DNA of 64,000 nt from Anaerolineales bacterium (GTDB lineage Bacteria > Chloroflexota > Anaerolineae > Anaerolineales > UBA11579): contig JBBDXR010000035.1 in assembly GCA_040902205.1 (NCBI GenBank), positions 272 through 64,271 of the forward strand, given 5' to 3'. How positions within the stretch are numbered: the stretch's first letter is position 1; every line of letters starts with the position of its first letter. The position numbers and the translations under genes are program-made. The notes beneath the pieces were generated by a model. The model ran no database searches, was not told where the DNA came from, and saw only the letters and a program-made list of their open reading frames with translations. Below are positions 27,385-37,671 of the stretch, piece after piece.

Positions 27385-28575
27385 CTAGCCGGCCGTGAAA
27401 AAGCTTCCTTCGCCTTCGTTGTCCAGCCAGGTGTCCTGGTAGCCGGGCTTCTCCAGCTCCAGAGCATCTGCGGTGAGGTGTAGCGGGTAAAAGGTGTCCA
27501 CCATCACCGCCAGCTCGTCGGTGCGCTTCTTGCCAATGGAGGCCTCGGTGGCGCCGGGTTGGGGGCCGTGCGGCAGGCCGAAGGGATGCAAAGTGATGTC
27601 GCAACGGTCGATGCTCTTGCGCGACATAAAGTTGCCTTCCGCGTAATAGATCACTTCATCGGACTGCACATTCGAGTGGTTGTAAGGCGCCGGAATGGCG
27701 TCCGGGTGGTAATCGTAAAGGCGCGGCACGAAAGAGCACAGCACGAAGTTGCGGCCCTCGAAAGTTTGGTGCGTTGGCGGGGGCAGGTGCAGGGCACCGG
27801 TGCGCGGCTCGAAGTCGTGGATGCTGAAGATCCATGGATATAGGAAGCCGTCCCAGCCCACCACATCGTGCGGATGGTGATCCAGCACATGCCGGCTAAT
27901 AGTGTCGCGCACTTTCACGCGCACCTCGAACTCGCCCTGGTCGGTGTGCGTGTCGAGCTGGCGCGGCACGCGGATGTCGCGTTCGGTGTATGGGGCATGC
28001 TCCAGCAGTTGGCCGTACTCGTTGCGGTAGCGGCGTGGCGGCTCAATGTGCGAAGGCGTCTCGACCACGAAGAAGCGCGCTTCCCTGCCGGAGAGCTCCA
28101 GCTTCCATGTGACGCCGAAGGGGATAACCAAATAGTCGCCTTCTTTGAATTCGAGAACGCCAAACTGGCTGCGCAGCACGCCGCTGCCCTCGTGCGTGTA
28201 CCAGCATTCGTAGGCCTGCGCGTTGCGATAAAAGTATTCCATGCTCTTGGTGGGGCGGCTGAGGCCCAGGGTCACGTCGTTATTGCCCATCAGGATGCGG
28301 CGGGCGGATACGGCATCGCCCCCCGCGGGAATCTCGGCCGTCTTGAAGGCGCGATGGCGGATGGCGCCGAAATCCACGTAGGCCGGCTTGGCCTCGCCCA
28401 GCAGCTCGACCTTCTTGATGCGCGGCGGCAGGAAGTGGTGATAGAGCAGCGACTGGATCCCGGAGAATCCTTCCAGCCCCATAACTTCTTCGCGGTATAG
28501 GCCGCCGCCATTGGGTTTCTTGAATTGGGTATGGCGTTTCTTGGGAAGTTGACCCAGGGAATGATAGAAGGGCAT
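27385..28575 (-). CDS. hmgA: Homogentisate 1,2-dioxygenase
   Basis: MPFYHSLGQLPKKRHTQF, HPHDVVGWDG, HLPPPTHQTF, CSFVPR, PYNHSN..SDEV.YY, LHP.G.PHGPQPG. Confidence 0.95.
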   Translation of the reverse strand: MPFYHSLGQLPKKRHTQFKKPNGGGLYREEVMGLEGFSGIQSLLYHHFLPPRIKKVELLGEAKPAYVDFGAIRHRAFKTAEIPAGGDAVSARRILMGNNDVTLGLSRPTKSMEYFYRNAQAYECWYTHEGSGVLRSQFGVLEFKEGDYLVIPFGVTWKLELSGREARFFVVETPSHIEPPRRYRNEYGQLLEHAPYTERDIRVPRQLDTHTDQGEFEVRVKVRDTISRHVLDHHPHDVVGWDGFLYPWIFSIHDFEPRTGALHLPPPTHQTFEGRNFVLCSFVPRLYDYHPDAIPAPYNHSNVQSDEVIYYAEGNFMSRKSIDRCDITLHPFGLPHGPQPGATEASIGKKRTDELAVMVDTFYPLHLTADALELEKPGYQDTWLDNEGEGSFFTAG

Positions 28576-28590
28576 GGGCGAAATCCTTTC

Positions 28591-28621
28591 AGCTGTAAGC
28601 TATAGGCTCTAAGCTTTAAGC
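28591..28621. repeat. 7-bp tandem repeat array (RGCTNTA), 3' flank of the four-helix-bundle gene
   Basis: AGCTGTA AGCTATA GGCTCTA AGCTTTA AGC; contains the gene's TAG stop. Confidence 0.8.
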
Positions 28622-28962
28622 TTGCCGATAAGGGCAGCTAGCATCTTCTTGACTTGATCAACTTCAGATTGCAGATTCTTAAAAACGATACTATCTATGT
28701 ATTCTAATTCATGCGCCAGAAGAATTTGGTAGTCGAGTTCGGCCGCCGAACCTAATGCAATGTAAAGGAATCTGCTAAATTGTGCATCTGTAGACTGCAC
28801 ACAACCCTCGGCTATGTTTGTTGGGATCGAAGACGAAGATCGGCGAATTTGGTTTGTCAATCCATACACTTCGGTCTTTGGGAACCCTTTGGTAGATTTG
28901 TAGATTTGTAGAGTTAGCTGGTGCGCTTTTTGCCAAACTTTTAATTGCTTGAAGTCTTGCAT
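28609..28962 (-). CDS. Four helix bundle protein (23S rRNA intervening-sequence-protein-like family)
   Basis: MQDFKQLKVWQKAH...FP..E.YGLT.QIRRS..SIP.NIAEG...RFL.IA.GS..E; AT-rich relative to its neighbours. Confidence 0.94.
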   Translation of the reverse strand: MQDFKQLKVWQKAHQLTLQIYKSTKGFPKTEVYGLTNQIRRSSSSIPTNIAEGCVQSTDAQFSRFLYIALGSAAELDYQILLAHELEYIDSIVFKNLQSEVDQVKKMLAALIGKLKA

Positions 28963-28973
28963 TTTTCTGCTTT

Positions 28974-29005
28974 GCTTATAGCCTAAAGCTTAGAGCTTAA
29001 TGCTA
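28974..29005. repeat. 7-bp tandem repeat array, 5' flank of the four-helix-bundle gene, inverted relative to 28591-28621
   Basis: GCTTATA GCCTAAA GCTTAGA GCTTAAT GCTA; contains the fahA TAG stop. Confidence 0.8.
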
Positions 29006-29911
29006 TGCCACTCTGTTCTTCAGCTCTCCTATCCCCTCTATCTCCACCTCAACCAGGTCCCCCGTCTTTAACCACGGGCCCTCGCCTTTGGTGATCTCAA
29101 GCAGGCACCCGGTACCCACAGTCCCCGAGCCAATTACATCGCCGGCCAGCAGGGTTACGCCCTCCGAGGCGCGGGCGATCATCTGCGCAAAAGTGTAGTG
29201 GATATCGCTCCAATTGCCGCGCGAGCGTTCCTCTCCATTGACCCGCGCCACCATGGCCGCCTCGTAGACGCCTGCGCGCCCCGTGGCTCTCTTCGCCAGC
29301 TCTTCCTGTGTCACGATCCAGGGACCCAGGCTGGTGGCGAAGTCCTTGCCCTTGGCCGGCCCCAGGCCCACCTTCATTTCTTTGCGTTGCACATCGCGCG
29401 CCGACCAATCGTTCATGATGGTGAAGCCGAAGATGTGATCGAGCGCTTTGTCGGCGGGAATGTCGCGGCCCGGCCGGCCAATAATGGCGGCTACTTCGAG
29501 CTCGTAGTCCATCGCTTGCGTAAACGCGGGTATGGCCACGTCTTCATTGGGGCCGTGGATGGTGTGGGGGTTGGTGAAATAAAAGACCGGGAACTCGTAC
29601 CACTCCTGGGGAACTTCGCGGCCGCGATTCTTGTTGGCCGTCTTCACATGGGTCTCGAAGGCGTAGAAGTCCCGCAGGGTGGGGGGATTCTGCAGCGGCG
29701 CTTTCAGCGTCACCTGGTCCAGCGGCCAGACGTTCTGCGTGCTGCGCGCCAGCATTTCGGCGACCAGCCAAATCTCCGGCCCCGCCTGGATCAGCGAGAG
29801 CATATCGGTGGGCAGGTCGCCGCGGGCCAGCGAAACCACGCGGTCCTCGGCGATCAGCGCACCCAGCCGCGGGCGTTCTTCTCCTGGGGCTACGAAGGTC
29901 AGATAGCGCAT
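29003..29911 (-). CDS. fahA: Fumarylacetoacetate hydrolase family protein
   Basis: LRDFYAFE.H, PVFYF.N, DYELE, NDWSARD.Q, GPAKGKDFA, GDVIGSGT. Confidence 0.93.
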   Translation of the reverse strand: MRYLTFVAPGEERPRLGALIAEDRVVSLARGDLPTDMLSLIQAGPEIWLVAEMLARSTQNVWPLDQVTLKAPLQNPPTLRDFYAFETHVKTANKNRGREVPQEWYEFPVFYFTNPHTIHGPNEDVAIPAFTQAMDYELEVAAIIGRPGRDIPADKALDHIFGFTIMNDWSARDVQRKEMKVGLGPAKGKDFATSLGPWIVTQEELAKRATGRAGVYEAAMVARVNGEERSRGNWSDIHYTFAQMIARASEGVTLLAGDVIGSGTVGTGCLLEITKGEGPWLKTGDLVEVEIEGIGELKNRVA

Positions 29912-29919
29912 GAGGGAGC

Positions 29920-31065
29920 TTAGCCGCCGTAGGGGTCCAGATTGCCGCGGCGGTCTTGTTCCATTTCCAGCGCTTCGAAGAGCGCCTTGAAGTTGCCCTT
30001 GCCGAAGCCCCGGCTGCCGTGGCGTTGGATCACTTCTATAAAGGAAGTGGGCCGGTCCTGGATGGGGCGCGAGAAGATCTGCAACAGGTAGCCTTCGTCG
30101 TCCCGGTCCACCAGGATGCCCAGTTCGTTGATCTTGTCCAACGGCTCCTTGACCACATCCCCCACGCGCTCCGGCAGCATCTCATAATAGGCATCCGGCA
30201 CGCGCAGGAACTCGATGCCGTTAGCCTTCAGCTTGGAGACCGTCTCGATGATGTCGCCGGTGGCCATGGCGATATGCTGCACGCCTGGAGTAAGGTAGTA
30301 GTCCAGGTACTCCTCGATCTGGCTCTTCTTCTTGCCGTCAGCCGGTTCGTTGATGGGAAACTTGATGCGCCCGTTGCCGTTCTCCATGACCTTAGACATC
30401 AGCGCCGAGTACTCGGTACTGATGTCCTTGTCGTCGAAATGCAGGAGCTGGCGGAAGCCCATGACGCGGTGGTAGAAGTTCACCCAGTGGTTCATCTTGC
30501 CGAGCTGTACATTGCCCACGATGTGGTCAACGGACGCCAGGCCCGCCGAGTCGGCTTCGAGGTCCAGAGCGTGATAGCCGGGCGCGAACGGCCCCTTGTA
30601 CGCGCTGCGGTCCACGAAGACATGCAATACTTCGCCATACGTGTGTATGGCGGAAGTGCGCAGGATCCCGAATTCATCCTTCTCTTCGCGGGGCCCCCAG
30701 GCGCTCTGGCCGCCGCGGGACGTGGTGGCCTTGTAAGCTTCGACCACATCCTTCACCTGGATGGCGATAACTTTGACGCCATCGCCGTGGGTCAAATGGT
30801 GGCCGGCGATCTCGTGCGAAGGCCCATAGGGCGCCGAAACGACGAAGCGGATCTTGCCGGATTCGAGGACATAGGAGGCGAACTCACGGTTGCCGGTCTC
30901 GAGGCCGGAATAGGCCACGGGTTTGAAGCCAAAGCCCTTCCACCACCAGTACATGGCTTGCTTGGCGTTGCCTACATAAAAATGTAGGTGGTCGACGGCT
31001 TGGATCTGCAAGAAATCGCCCTCTTCGGTCATCGGGCGGGTTTCGGGTTGTTTCACGTGGGCCAT
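29920..31065 (-). CDS. hppD: 4-hydroxyphenylpyruvate dioxygenase
   Basis: DHIVGNV, PINEP...SQIEEY, GVQHIA, GYLLQIF, FIEVIQR, GFGKGNFKALFEA. Confidence 0.97.
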   Translation of the reverse strand: MAHVKQPETRPMTEEGDFLQIQAVDHLHFYVGNAKQAMYWWWKGFGFKPVAYSGLETGNREFASYVLESGKIRFVVSAPYGPSHEIAGHHLTHGDGVKVIAIQVKDVVEAYKATTSRGGQSAWGPREEKDEFGILRTSAIHTYGEVLHVFVDRSAYKGPFAPGYHALDLEADSAGLASVDHIVGNVQLGKMNHWVNFYHRVMGFRQLLHFDDKDISTEYSALMSKVMENGNGRIKFPINEPADGKKKSQIEEYLDYYLTPGVQHIAMATGDIIETVSKLKANGIEFLRVPDAYYEMLPERVGDVVKEPLDKINELGILVDRDDEGYLLQIFSRPIQDRPTSFIEVIQRHGSRGFGKGNFKALFEALEMEQDRRGNLDPYGG

Positions 31066-31208
31066 AGGCGAACCTCCGGGTAGCTGCTAGCGATCAGCTT
31101 AAATGATTATAGTCCGTGAATAATGGTTGCTGACCGGTCAATTCGTCGATTGGCCAATTCGGCCCATCGCAGTTCTGCTTTCCCGCATGCTAGAATCCCA
31201 AGCCGACC

Positions 31209-34086: not shown

Positions 34087-35388
34087 ATGACCGCAAGCTT
34101 TCCTCGGGATTCCGCCCGGATACCCGGTTTCTATAACTTGCCTCTGGCCCAACGCCAGGCGCGCCTGCGCGCCCTGGGCCTGGGCGCGGCCGAGGTGGCC
34201 GCCTTCGCTACCGGCGGCCTGACCGCCGAGTCCGCCGACCACATGATCGAAAACGTGGTCGGCACTTTCAACCTGCCGCTCGGCATCACCCTGAACTTCG
34301 TGGTCAATGGCCGCGAGGTGCTGATTCCGATGGTCATCGAAGAACCCTCAGTGGTGGCAGGTGCCTCTTTCATGGCCAAGTTGGCACGGCCGGGCGGCGG
34401 CTTCCGCGCTTCCGCCGATGCGCCCGAAATGATCGGCCAGATGCAATTGCTGGACGTGACCGATTTGGACAAGGCGGCCGCCGCCATCGAGAAGGCCAAA
34501 GCTCAATTGTTGGCCGAGGCCACCGGGATCGACCCCGTGCTGCAAAAGCTAGGCGGCGGACCGCGCGACCTTGAAGTTCGACGCATTGAAGAATCGCCTA
34601 TCGGTCCGTTCCTGGTCTTGCATCTGATCTACGACGTGCGCGACGCCATGGGCGCCAACGCGGTCAACACCGCCTGCGAACGCCTGGCGCCGAAGATCGA
34701 AGCGCTCACCGGTGGGCGCGTGCATTTGCGCATCTTGAGCAACCTGGCCGACCGGCGCTTGGCGCGCGCCGATTGCACCATCAACCTGAACGAACTTGCC
34801 TTCGGCGAGTTCAGCGCCGAAGCGGTACGTGATGGCATCATCGAGGCTTGGGCATTCGCCGCGGCTGACCCGTATCGCGCGGCCACCCACAACAAAGGCA
34901 TCATGAACGGCGTGGACGCGGTGGTCATCGCCACGGGCAACGACTGGCGCGCTGTGGAAGCCGGAGCCCACGCATTTGCATCGCGCTCCGGCCGCTACAC
35001 CTCTCTAAGCACCTGGAGTAAGGATACGGATGGCAACCTGGTTGGCGCTCTCGAGATGCCGATGGCGGTTGGCATTGTGGGCGGCGCCATCAAGGTTCAT
35101 CCCGCGGCCCAGGCTGCCCTTAAATTGATGGGCGTGAGCACTGCCGCCGACCTGGCGCAGATCATCGTTTCAGTCGGGCTAGCGCAGAACCTGGCAGCCC
35201 TGCGCGCCCTGGCCACCGAAGGCATCCAGCGCGGCCATATGAGCTTGCACGCCCGGCAAGTAGCCATCGCCGCCGGTGCTAAGGGCGCCGCGATCGATAA
35301 GCTGGCTGGCCAGCTGGTGAAAGAAAAGACCGTGCGCGTTGACCGCGCCGAGCAAATCTTGAAGGATTGGACCAATGGTAACCACTGA
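34087..35388 (+). CDS. mvaA: HMG-CoA reductase, class II
   Basis: [42 protein letters not shown]. Confidence 0.96.
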
Positions 35389-36460
35389 TCACGACCACGA
35401 ACACGCCCGTGTGCTAAAACCCGAGAATCCGGTCGGCATCGTGGGCTACGGCGCCTACGTGCCGCGCTATCGTTTGCCGGCGCGCGAAGTGGCGCGCATC
35501 TGGATGGACGGCACTGGCGGCCTGCCCATCGAGGAGAAGTCAGTGCCGGGGCTGGATGAGGACGTGGCCACCATGTCCATCGAGGCGGCGCGCAATGCGC
35601 TGGCCCGCGCCCAGATCAACCCGCGCGACTTGCGCGCCGTGTGGGTCGGCTCTGAGTCGCACCCGTATGCGGTCAAGCCCACCTCCACCATCGTGGCCGA
35701 AGCCATCGGCGCGGTGCCCAGCACGCAGGCCGCCGATTGGGAGTTCGCCTGCAAGGCGGGCACCGAGGCTATGGTGGCGGCCATGGGCTTCGTGGGTTCC
35801 AAGATGGCGCGCTACGCGCTGGCCATCGGCATGGACACTGCCCAGGGCCGCCCGGGCGACGCGCTGGAATACACCGCCGGGGCGGGCGGCGCCGCCTTCA
35901 TCATTGGCCCTGGAGCGGAGTCGCTGGCGGAGATCGAAAGCTCCTATTCGTTCGTTACTGACACGCCGGATTTCTGGCGCCGCCAGTATGCCAAGTATCC
36001 CGAGCACGGCCAGCGCTTCACCGGCGAGCCCGCCTATTTCAAGCACATCACCTCAGCCGGCGAGGCCATGTTCGAAGCCACCGGCACCAGGCCGGAAGAT
36101 TACGCTTACGCCGTCTTCCACCAACCCAACACCAAGTTCCCTCAACGCGCCGGCGCCATCCTGGGCTTCAAGCCGGAGCAGATGGCGACTGGCTTGCTGG
36201 TGCCGCGCATCGGCAACACCTACTCCGGCGCCGCCATCATTGGCCTCACCGCCATCCTGGATGTCGCCAAACCCGGCGAGCGCATCATGATGGTCTCCTT
36301 CGGCTCCGGCGCCGGGTCGGACGCCATGGTGTTGCGCGTCACGGACAAGATCGCCGGCAAGCCGGAGCTGGCCACCCAGACCGAAGAGTACATTGCCCGC
36401 CGCACGGAGATCGATTACGCCGAGTATGTGCGCATGCGAGGAAAGCTGACAATGAAGTAA
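35375..36460 (+). CDS. mvaS: HMG-CoA synthase, archaeal type
   Basis: [18 protein letters not shown] (catalytic Cys), FHQPN (catalytic His), [16 protein letters not shown]. Confidence 0.95.
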
Positions 36461-36494
36461 CTAGTAAGTAGTAATTACTATTTACTAATTACTG
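36456..36494. repeat. Back-to-back inverted 7-bp arrays (AGTAANT x3 / TTACTAN x3) between mvaS and the thiolase gene
   Basis: AGTAACT AGTAAGT AGTAATT ACTATTT ACTAATT ACTG; the mvaS TAA stop lies inside the first unit. Confidence 0.75.
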
Positions 36495-36510: not shown

Positions 36511-37671
36511 ATGACAAATGTAGTTATTGCTGGTATCGGCCAAACGCCCGTCAATGAACACTGGGAGATCTCGCTGCGCGAGCTGGCTTTCCAGGCCATG
36601 GAGGCCGCCATGCAGGATGCAGGCGGCTTGCGGCCCAATGCGCTTTACGTCGGCAACATGTTGGCTAGCGCCCTTTCACACCAGGCGCATCTTGGCGCCA
36701 TGCTGGCCGATTTCGCCGGCCTCACCGGCATCGAAGCCGCCACCATCGAGGCCGCCGGCGCCTCGGCAGCCATGGCGCTGCGCGTTGGTTATCTCGCCGT
36801 GGCCTCCGGCCTGGTAGACGCCGCCATGGTGCTGGGCGTCGAGAAGCTCAGCGACCAAGTACCCGCCCAGGTGGAGAGCGCCCTGGCCATGGGCAGCGAC
36901 ACAGATTACGAAGCCGAACAGGGGCTCACGCTCACCGCGCAAGCGGCCATGCTCGCCCAACGCTACATGCACGAATTCAAGGTTCCGGACCACGCCCTCG
37001 GCGGCTTCCCGCTCACCGCGCACGCCAATGGTGCCCACAATCCCAATGCCATGTTCCGCAAGGTGGTTAAGCCGGAGACCTACGCCAAGGCCGGCATGGT
37101 CAGCGCTCCGCTGAACATGTTCGATGTGGCTCCGAACGCAGACGGCGCGGCAGCGCTGCTGCTCACCCGCGCTGACCTGCTGCCACCGAAGTTTCCAAAT
37201 CCCCTGGTGGAGATCATTGGCTCCAGCGCGGCGACCGATACCTTGGCGCTGCACGACCGGCCCGATCCGCTTACCTTCAATGCGGCCAGATTATCCATCG
37301 AGCGCGCTTGCGCCCAGGCCGGGATCCTTCCCAAGGACGCGGATTTCTTCGAACTCTTCGATGCTTTCTCCATTTATGGTGCGCTTTCTATGGAAGCGGC
37401 CGGCTTCTCGCCAAAGGGCGAGGGCTGGAAGTGGGCGCAAAATGGCGCAATCAAGCTGGACGGTGAAATGCCCATCGCTACCCTTGGCGGCCTCAAGGCG
37501 CGCGGCTTCCCTGGCGGCGCCACCGGCGCCTACCAGGCCGTCGAAGCCGTGATCCAGTTGCGCGGTCAGGCGGGGGAAGCCCAGGTGAAGGGTGCAAAGA
37601 CCGCCCTGGTGCAAAGCCTGGGCGGCCCGGCCTCCACGGCGGTCACACACGTGTTGAGAACAATCAATTAG
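36511..37671 (+). CDS. Archaeal-type thiolase-fold protein lacking the canonical catalytic residues
   Basis: Thiolase pattern throughout (VVIAGIGQTP, LGVEKLSD, ADGAAA, GGLKARG.P.GATG), but EAAGASA, LFDAFS and RGFPGG replace EAACASG, HD.F and GHP. Confidence 0.9.
   Translation: MTNVVIAGIGQTPVNEHWEISLRELAFQAMEAAMQDAGGLRPNALYVGNMLASALSHQAHLGAMLADFAGLTGIEAATIEAAGASAAMALRVGYLAVASGLVDAAMVLGVEKLSDQVPAQVESALAMGSDTDYEAEQGLTLTAQAAMLAQRYMHEFKVPDHALGGFPLTAHANGAHNPNAMFRKVVKPETYAKAGMVSAPLNMFDVAPNADGAAALLLTRADLLPPKFPNPLVEIIGSSAATDTLALHDRPDPLTFNAARLSIERACAQAGILPKDADFFELFDAFSIYGALSMEAAGFSPKGEGWKWAQNGAIKLDGEMPIATLGGLKARGFPGGATGAYQAVEAVIQLRGQAGEAQVKGAKTALVQSLGGPASTAVTHVLRTIN

Follow-up and report, generated by a model that had tools for sequence, protein, structure and literature searches.

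The 'four helix bundle protein' family (PF05635) is very large and structures have been solved, but to our knowledge its function has not been known since the discovery of the family in rRNA intervening sequences (IVS) in the 1990s. The function of Avd, the accessory protein of diversity-generating retroelements (DGRs), rests on binding to nucleic acid and to a partner enzyme. PF05635 proteins resemble Avd (PMC10053308). In Coxiella burnetii, the S23p IVS holds a PF05635-family gene inside an RNase III-processed 23S rRNA stem with tandem heptamers (PMC4990558). Heptamer arrays have also been described without a gene: the GGGNATC arrays of Xanthomonas and Nostoc show a preference for four units, are located between co-directional genes and sometimes form inverted pairs (PMC4692102). 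Armed cassettes in operons, with a four-helix-bundle gene between heptamer arrays, were not found described in the literature searched.

The cassette between fahA and hmgA

The window, i.e. the whole stretch of DNA analysed here, comprises 64,000 nucleotides from an Anaerolineales bacterium. It contains a cassette of this kind within a tyrosine-breakdown operon with the gene order hppD, fahA, 117-aa ORF, hmgA-like. The relevant features are as follows.

31080..31106, minus strand: short array remnant TTTAAGCTGATCGCTAGCAGCTACC, between a TATAAT box and the ribosome-binding site of hppD
31065..29920, minus strand: hppD (ORF call)
29911..29003, minus strand: fahA (FAA hydrolase), upstream host gene (ORF and family match)
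28974..29005, minus strand: 5' arm, about 4.4 units, TAAGCTN on the transcript (Tandem Repeats Finder and inverted-repeat search)
28962..28609, minus strand: four-helix-bundle gene, 117 aa, PF05635/TIGR02436, homologue of XCC0516
28586..28623, minus strand: 3' arm, about 5.4 units, NAGCTTA on the transcript (Tandem Repeats Finder and inverted-repeat search)
28584..28589, minus strand: Shine-Dalgarno sequence AAAGGA of the hmgA-like gene, directly 3' of the 3' arm
28575..27385, minus strand: hmgA-like dioxygenase gene, downstream host gene
36456..36493, plus strand: gene-less inverted heptamer hairpin, AGTAAnT (three units) and AnTTACT (three units)

The initial annotation had described an AT-rich 117-aa gene between fahA and hmgA, flanked by inverted 7-bp tandem arrays that share a 13-bp perfect match, with the stop codons of fahA and of the inserted gene at the arrays and the hmgA ribosome-binding site behind the 3' array. 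All of this was confirmed. The G+C content of the gene is 41% compared with 61% in the flanks (ranges 0.37–0.46 across the insert and 0.57–0.72 in the flanks). Tandem Repeats Finder detected period-7 arrays at 28586–28623 (5.4 copies) and 28974–29004 (4.4 copies), which are inverted relative to each other, form arms of 27–31 nt around the ORF and are 85% complementary over 27 nt, with mismatches at every seventh base. The 13-mer TAAAGCTTAGAGC is located at 28984 on the plus strand and recurs as its reverse complement at 28606; by chance, about 1e-5 matches of this kind would be expected between two windows of 40 nt. The stop codon of fahA (TAG, 29005–29003) adjoins the first unit of the 5' arm, the stop codon of the cassette gene (28611–28609) is contained in the 3' array and the Shine-Dalgarno sequence of hmgA (AAAGGA, 28589–28584) follows this array with no gap. 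The cassette fills, in sense orientation, the gap from the fahA stop codon to the hmgA ribosome-binding site. Neither a promoter nor a terminator was found inside the cassette on the transcribed strand, and we infer that it is transcribed by read-through from the host operon. Since the cassette stretch is identical in a 29-kb contig of an independent Logan metagenome assembly, it is not an assembly artefact.

At positions 28609–28623 of the window, the 3' array codes for the C-terminal tail KLKA of the 117-aa protein plus its stop codon. Array-coded tails, either KKLKA[DE]R or KLKA with the stop codon included, are present in the 3' arms of the subfamily to which the window's gene belongs (L125–L203). 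A unit length of 7, not divisible by 3, brings a stop triplet of the unit into the reading frame within three units, whichever frame is used.

The 117-aa ORF scored 138.5 bits with PF05635 (cut-off 33.8; E 1.1e-40) and 134 bits with TIGR02436 (cut-off 24; E 2.2e-39) and is thus a member of both families. Its nearest solved homologue is XCC0516 (PDB 2GSC; E 6e-21), which was deposited with five chains as a pentamer. In ten close pairs of relatives, dN/dS ranged from 0.03 to 0.13 with dS up to 1–1.6; judged by these ratios, the cassette protein is functional and strong purifying selection maintains it. No recombinase or nuclease domain was found at the cassette and no copies of the family were found in phages. 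Membership in a defence system was rejected, since the cassette protein matched no family among the PADLOC anti-phage defence models at E ≤ 0.01.

Comparison with 23S rRNA IVSs (Leptospira; Coxiella, PMC4990558) revealed extensive similarities. The genes belong to the same family and are placed in the loop of a long stem, tandem heptamers are present (in the IVS in its 5' part), the IVS is transcribed within a host RNA, as the window cassette probably is, and is seen as a selfish insert. In the window, the terminal inverted repeats close a stem: in the minimum-free-energy RNA fold the arms pair over 17 bp and enclose the gene. On the other hand, the IVS is inserted into an rRNA helix, whereas the window cassette is situated at the boundary of two genes, fahA and the hmgA-like gene, of a protein-coding operon. 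Unlike those of the Coxiella IVS, its arrays are inverted and occur on both sides, and its ORF is under strong purifying selection while that of Coxiella is decaying and probably not translated (PMC4990558). The 23S rRNA IVS is excised by RNase III without re-ligation; for the window element, such cutting would be a prediction. The STRR and GGGNATC repeats (PMC4692102) have in common with the cassette the 7-nt unit, the number of about four units and the location near stop and start codons between co-directional genes. However, the repeats of PMC4692102 come without a gene family and were explained by G-quadruplex formation, whereas the unit type of the cassettes is tied to the protein lineage. 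The likeness to integron cassettes is functional only and consists of a promoter-less single gene, foldable imperfect inverted repeats, use of an outside promoter and exchange between relatives. In contrast to integron cassettes, the repeats are tandem heptamers on both sides and the insertions are scattered over many operon junctions instead of being arrayed.

Turnover of cassettes within the genus

The source assembly (G000; 2.46 Mb, 59% G+C) encodes six PF05635 genes, all of low G+C content (0.41–0.49), whose proteins are 31–37% identical to each other in pairwise comparisons. All six are placed between a stop codon and the ribosome-binding site of the next gene, and all six are flanked by inverted heptamer arrays with a unit differing per copy (TAAGCTN, TAGTTGN, CCAACGT, TTGGTCA, TTAATCN and GATTTNN). 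One of these units, TTGGTCA, is presumably identical to the cyanobacterial STRR2. The features by which MITEs and classical transposons are recognized, target-site duplications and near-identical genomic copies, were not seen for the cassette.

In the 23 genomes of the genus we found 69 family matches, ranging from 0 to 11 per genome, at about 10 recurrent and 13 single junctions; most of the intact genes are armed. Genes were considered armed when an arm had at least three units, with neighbouring units identical in at least 5 of 7 bases. By this definition, both sides were armed in 32/56 genus genes, 58/73 scorable cross-phylum genes and 43/61 metagenome genes, and the resulting range of 57–79% refers to one genus and two subfamilies. 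A random window reaches three units in 1.75% of cases per side. The number of units per arm was most often four (range 3–5).

The fahA–hmgA junction was resolved in 19 genomes. Intact cassettes filled 11 of them, while two contained a broken gene (one frameshifted, one truncated), two a scar that keeps a helix-4 coding piece together with remnants of the 3' arm, and four were empty, with a short gap only. The junction is also empty in outgroups from another genus and another family. Three protein lineages fill this site: A with TAAGC arms, to which the window's cassette belongs, B with TCAGC arms and C with TTAGC arms. Lineage A groups with the TAAGC cassettes of Ignavibacteriota and Promineifilaceae and not with lineage B of its own genus, lineage B groups with the TCAGC cassettes of Anaerolineaceae, and lineage C is sister to the cassette upstream of hppD in two genomes.

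Sister species, defined on an rpoB tree by branches of 0.01–0.035, differed at this junction. Lineage A was opposed to a broken B (G019 and G021; branches 0.035), a scar to A (G016 and G018; branches 0.015 and 0.010) and a broken A to C (G017 and G003; branches 0.021). In alignments of sister species, the flanks were 95–100% identical and the cassettes 40–65%. On the right, identity resumes at the ribosome-binding site or the ATG of hmgA; the left border is located 25–75 nt inside the 3' end of fahA, and this tail of fahA is replaced along with the cassette. The same pattern of alleles in sister species was observed at a second junction, which holds another copy of the source genome (C33:232007). 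No target-site duplication was seen at the borders of filled and empty sites.

In-place divergence was rejected as the origin of the three fahA–hmgA alleles, since they cluster with cassettes from other phyla and differ between sister species; the process is allele replacement. As the breakpoints are located in conserved coding blocks of the flanking genes, homologous recombination between members of the genus is the simplest route, and ordinary recombination of this kind may suffice for the turnover, with no activity on the part of the element. Spread within the genus would proceed by homologous recombination in the flanking genes. Gene and arms form one unit of inheritance and exchange, and among sister species a cassette allele can be exchanged for another, broken, reduced to a scar or hairpin, or missing. 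The idea of a mobile cassette put forward in the initial annotation is borne out by the unrelated alleles with sharp borders at the same site in sister species. The flanks of other family members (heptamer arms in 6/6 genes of the source genome and in 57–79% of the three samples) and the orthologous operons, which do not always keep the gene (4 empty, 2 scars), are in line with it.

Unit type and protein lineage across phyla

A first scan of species genomes, queried with aligned sequences of lineages A, B and C, yielded 80 loci that were 50–63% identical, i.e. as similar as the genus alleles are to each other. Relatives with a T[ACT]AG[CT]NN unit were present in at least 12 phyla. The hosts belong to Chloroflexota, Ignavibacteriota, Bacteroidota, Planctomycetota, Acidobacteriota, Nitrospirota, Cyanobacteriota, Verrucomicrobiota, Poribacteria, Desulfobacterota/Myxococcota, Pseudomonadota, KSB1 and SAR324. 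Nearly all cross-phylum loci have T[ACT]AG[CT]NN 5' of the gene and the complementary unit 3' of it. Both neighbours were co-directional with the cassette gene in 45 loci, and the opposite direction was found in 5. Copies were also carried by 26 plasmids, mostly cyanobacterial, 13 of which are conjugative.

On the protein tree, the unit label required 22 changes compared with 40.2 after shuffling (0/200 shuffles as low). Unit similarity rose steadily with protein identity (r = 0.54 for pairs with less than 65% identity; 0/300 permutations as high). In a second subfamily, recovered by scanning metagenomes with the clade of the TTAATC copy, the units belong to another family, xGTYYxx. The same core is retained by the units past the stop codon, which are non-coding, and by the likewise non-coding 5' arm, and a coding constraint on the 3' arm was therefore judged unlikely to be the cause of unit conservation. 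Synonymous sites are saturated already at 90% protein identity (dS 1–1.6); the survival of the unit core at 50–60% identity thus implies selection on the unit sequence. These comparisons clearly indicate that selection acts on the unit core and that the core is lineage-specific, following the protein across phyla. Part of the covariation of unit and protein could be due to joint inheritance rather than recognition.

The arm mismatches of 50 distinct pairs comprised 38 of the G–U type and 33 of the A–C type, an absence of asymmetry that provides no indication of wobble-tolerant selection acting on the sense RNA. Together with the conserved identity of the unit core, mismatches without a G–U bias point to sequence-specific recognition, a reading not put forward in the initial annotation, and not to pairing alone. 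We lean slightly towards a model in which the protein, as a homopentamer, would bind its own arrays, typically four to five units per arm, with either RNA or DNA as the target. The TRAP protein of B. subtilis, whose ring of identical subunits binds tandem RNA repeats, one short repeat for each subunit, provides an analogy only. For the cassette, five subunits would face four to five units; the fold is unrelated.

Several loci of other layout were also recorded. On plasmid pPg_01 of Pseudanabaena galeata, a cassette (L205, 960–1670) is located between the CRISPR-Cas genes cas6 and cas4, with 17 units of AAAGCTA upstream and nine units of AAAGCCA downstream, array sizes that indicate large slippage expansions. 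The plasmid copy of Nostoc PCC 7120 has a 3' array only and transposases on its flanks. Seven Anaerolineales loci (L126, L127, L137, L146, L147, L163 and L177) show a three-array layout in the order complete TCAGC/GCTGA hairpin, GCTTATAAT, gene and one GCTGA array. In these loci, GCTTATAAT is located about 8 nt before the ATG of the cassette and might represent a promoter of the cassette itself, with a leaderless start. The downstream GMC-oxidoreductase-like gene has its start codon within the last GCTGA array (ATGGCTGATTGC...).

Gene-less arrays, transcripts and competing explanations

Most of the 59 period-7 arrays of the source genome have no gene. Single, unpaired arrays are common and several gene-less hairpins keep an SD-ATG-like loop. 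In the window, the hairpin at 36456–36493 overlaps the TAA stop codon of the ORF 35375..36460 and is placed just before the ribosome-binding site of the ORF 36511..37671, so that it follows the positional logic of the cassette without a gene. At the position of the array remnant at 31080–31106, two genomes of the genus (G001 and G009) hold a complete TTAGC-type cassette; the 5' UTR of hppD is thus a second cassette site of the same operon. At two junctions occupied in relatives by cassettes with other units, the source genome has TTAATC-type gene-less hairpins, and for many of its gene-less arrays it encodes no protein with a matching unit. A further site of the source genome, C33:123862–124190, precedes a gene beginning with MANTREIR (probably ATP synthase gamma) and comprises about 300 nt with a diverged second copy of the first codons of this gene (ATGGCTAACACCCGCGAAATTCG). 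Relatives have GACAG-type cassettes there, and the site looks like a displaced gene start.

The number of arrays varied widely within the genus, with 0 to 179 pattern matches per genome for the AGTGA type and 0 to 25 for the GACAG type. Among genomes of 2.3 Mb, some had 80–180 AGTGA-type matches and others none (G002, G016, G005, G018 and G003 versus G011, G010, G019 and G020). A single protein type behind the abundant AGTGA arrays was rejected, since no one clade fits their distribution. G011, which is located inside an array-rich clade, has no four-helix-bundle gene and 4 AGTGA-type matches, compared with about 100 in its nearest relatives. At orthologous sites it is without the arrays of G016, or the hairpins are decayed or different. 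A 56-nt array of seven TATCAGC units directly after a TATAAT box in G016 (L290; C1:1105371-1105426) is missing at the collinear site of G011. The three genomes without a family gene have the lowest or near-lowest array sums (0, 6 and 6). Across the genus, the number of family genes correlated with array counts (rho 0.57, p 0.005; uncorrected for phylogeny and completeness).

RNA runs holding the window stretch were not found; the stretch was present in DNA metagenomes only. The cassette of a relative from Anaerolineae UTCFX1 (L128) occurs in many metatranscriptomes, and its contigs run unbroken through the cassette gene, the 3' arm and the downstream gene, with one RNA contig also spanning the 5' arm. 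The cassette of this relative is co-transcribed with its downstream gene. No joints skipping the cassette were found in these metatranscriptome contigs, which are assembled contigs and not reads. In two runs (X7 and X9), the contig covering the upstream gene's end and the 5' arm (L128, 1005–1229) had about half the depth of its neighbours, and contigs ended at the same places in several runs. The drop in depth could be due to strain variants of the arm region or to RNA processing.

We consider it about 60% probable that the window contains a horizontally exchanged, self-contained cassette, composed of a promoter-less PF05635 gene and lineage-matched inverted heptamer arrays, which is read through from the operon. 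A more tentative part of this model, to which we give somewhat less than an even chance, is drawn by analogy with the 23S rRNA IVS: the arms would pair in the transcript, keep the insert harmless to the operon and perhaps allow an RNase III-type excision. The initial annotation had likewise suggested a processable mRNA element looped out by its arms, for which pairing over 17–27 bp is possible.

A purely RNA-structural element of the IVS kind, in which an RNase III-cut stem would free the cassette mRNA and split the operon transcript while the protein is unrelated to the repeats, is unlikely. The Coxiella 23S rRNA with a gene of the same family in an RNase III-processed heptamer stem (PMC4990558) speaks for such an element, as do the 17-bp pairing in the minimum-free-energy fold and the sense orientation of the cassettes in operons. 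However, the stems are interrupted every 7 nt, the mismatches show no G–U bias and, in different phyla, the unit core keeps its sequence along with the protein lineage beyond what complementarity demands, also in the non-coding units past the stop codon. Moreover, unpaired single arrays are common and the RNA contigs of the UTCFX1 relative run through the 3' arm. Even less likely are STRR-like genomic repeats born independently by slippage, with the four-helix-bundle genes as passengers in pre-existing hairpins. Host features should follow the host, whereas the unit follows the protein lineage over at least 12 phyla. Furthermore, the gene pieces in scars imply that at least some gene-less sites are derived from cassettes, and the three genomes without a family gene are poor in arrays. 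These points have to be set against the mostly gene-less 59 arrays of the source genome, the spread of AGTGA-type matches from 0 to 179 in the genus, the published gene-free arrays with a preference for four units between co-directional genes (PMC4692102) and the 17-unit expansion on the Pseudanabaena plasmid.

The proteins might alternatively be repeat-binding regulators that benefit the host by controlling expression between neighbouring operon genes, with gene-less arrays as targets, autoregulatory arms and alleles resulting from diversifying selection instead of selfish spread. This would agree with the purifying selection on the protein, the exact placement of arrays between a stop codon and the next ribosome-binding site, the extra TTAATC, CCAACGT and GATTT arrays in a genome that encodes these protein types and the uncorrected correlation of gene and array numbers. 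Nevertheless, we regard it as improbable, because the genes are often broken, deleted or missing in close relatives (0 to 11 per genome), the most abundant array types of the source genome have no matching gene, and neither the cross-phylum distribution with plasmid copies nor the low G+C content of the genes fits such a role. The chance that the protein is an Avd-type accessory protein of a DGR is negligible. It shares with Avd (PDB 4DWL; NF033474) a homologous pentameric four-helix-bundle fold and has weak matches to Avd models (NF033474, 23.9 bits; bAvd, 21 bits; PHROG Avd family, 7e-9), but the first is far below the equivalog cut-off of 80 bits. In contrast to Avd, the protein is encoded between inverted heptamer arms of its own; neither a template nor a variable repeat was found near the window cassette. 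A reverse transcriptase (PF00078) was absent from 22/23 genomes of the genus, the source genome among them; the cassette protein is therefore no working DGR Avd, and retro-mobility via a resident enzyme was rejected as well.

Beyond the preferred reading of an exchanged cassette, the four-helix-bundle proteins and heptamer arrays might constitute one bacteria-wide genetic system, a proposal that we regard as possible but rather doubtful. It would combine lineage-specific recognition of the unit, mobility of gene and arms without a transposase in transcribed junctions, and creation or maintenance of gene-less arrays by the proteins. The junctions settled would be operon gaps, 5' UTRs, cas loci and rRNA helices. 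A lineage losing all four-helix-bundle genes would also lose its arrays, which is what G011 looks like. If true, such a system would account for the hitherto unexplained surplus of heptamer repeats in bacterial genomes as well as for what the IVS protein family does.

New here are the tie between a protein lineage and its own 7-base repeat and the movement and replacement of gene and repeats as a unit in operons. Both findings make the question of PF05635 function testable at the bench, and they offer an explanation for the excess of heptamer repeats reported in bacterial genomes. A type of gene cassette that is able to sit between tightly packed genes is also of interest for operon engineering.
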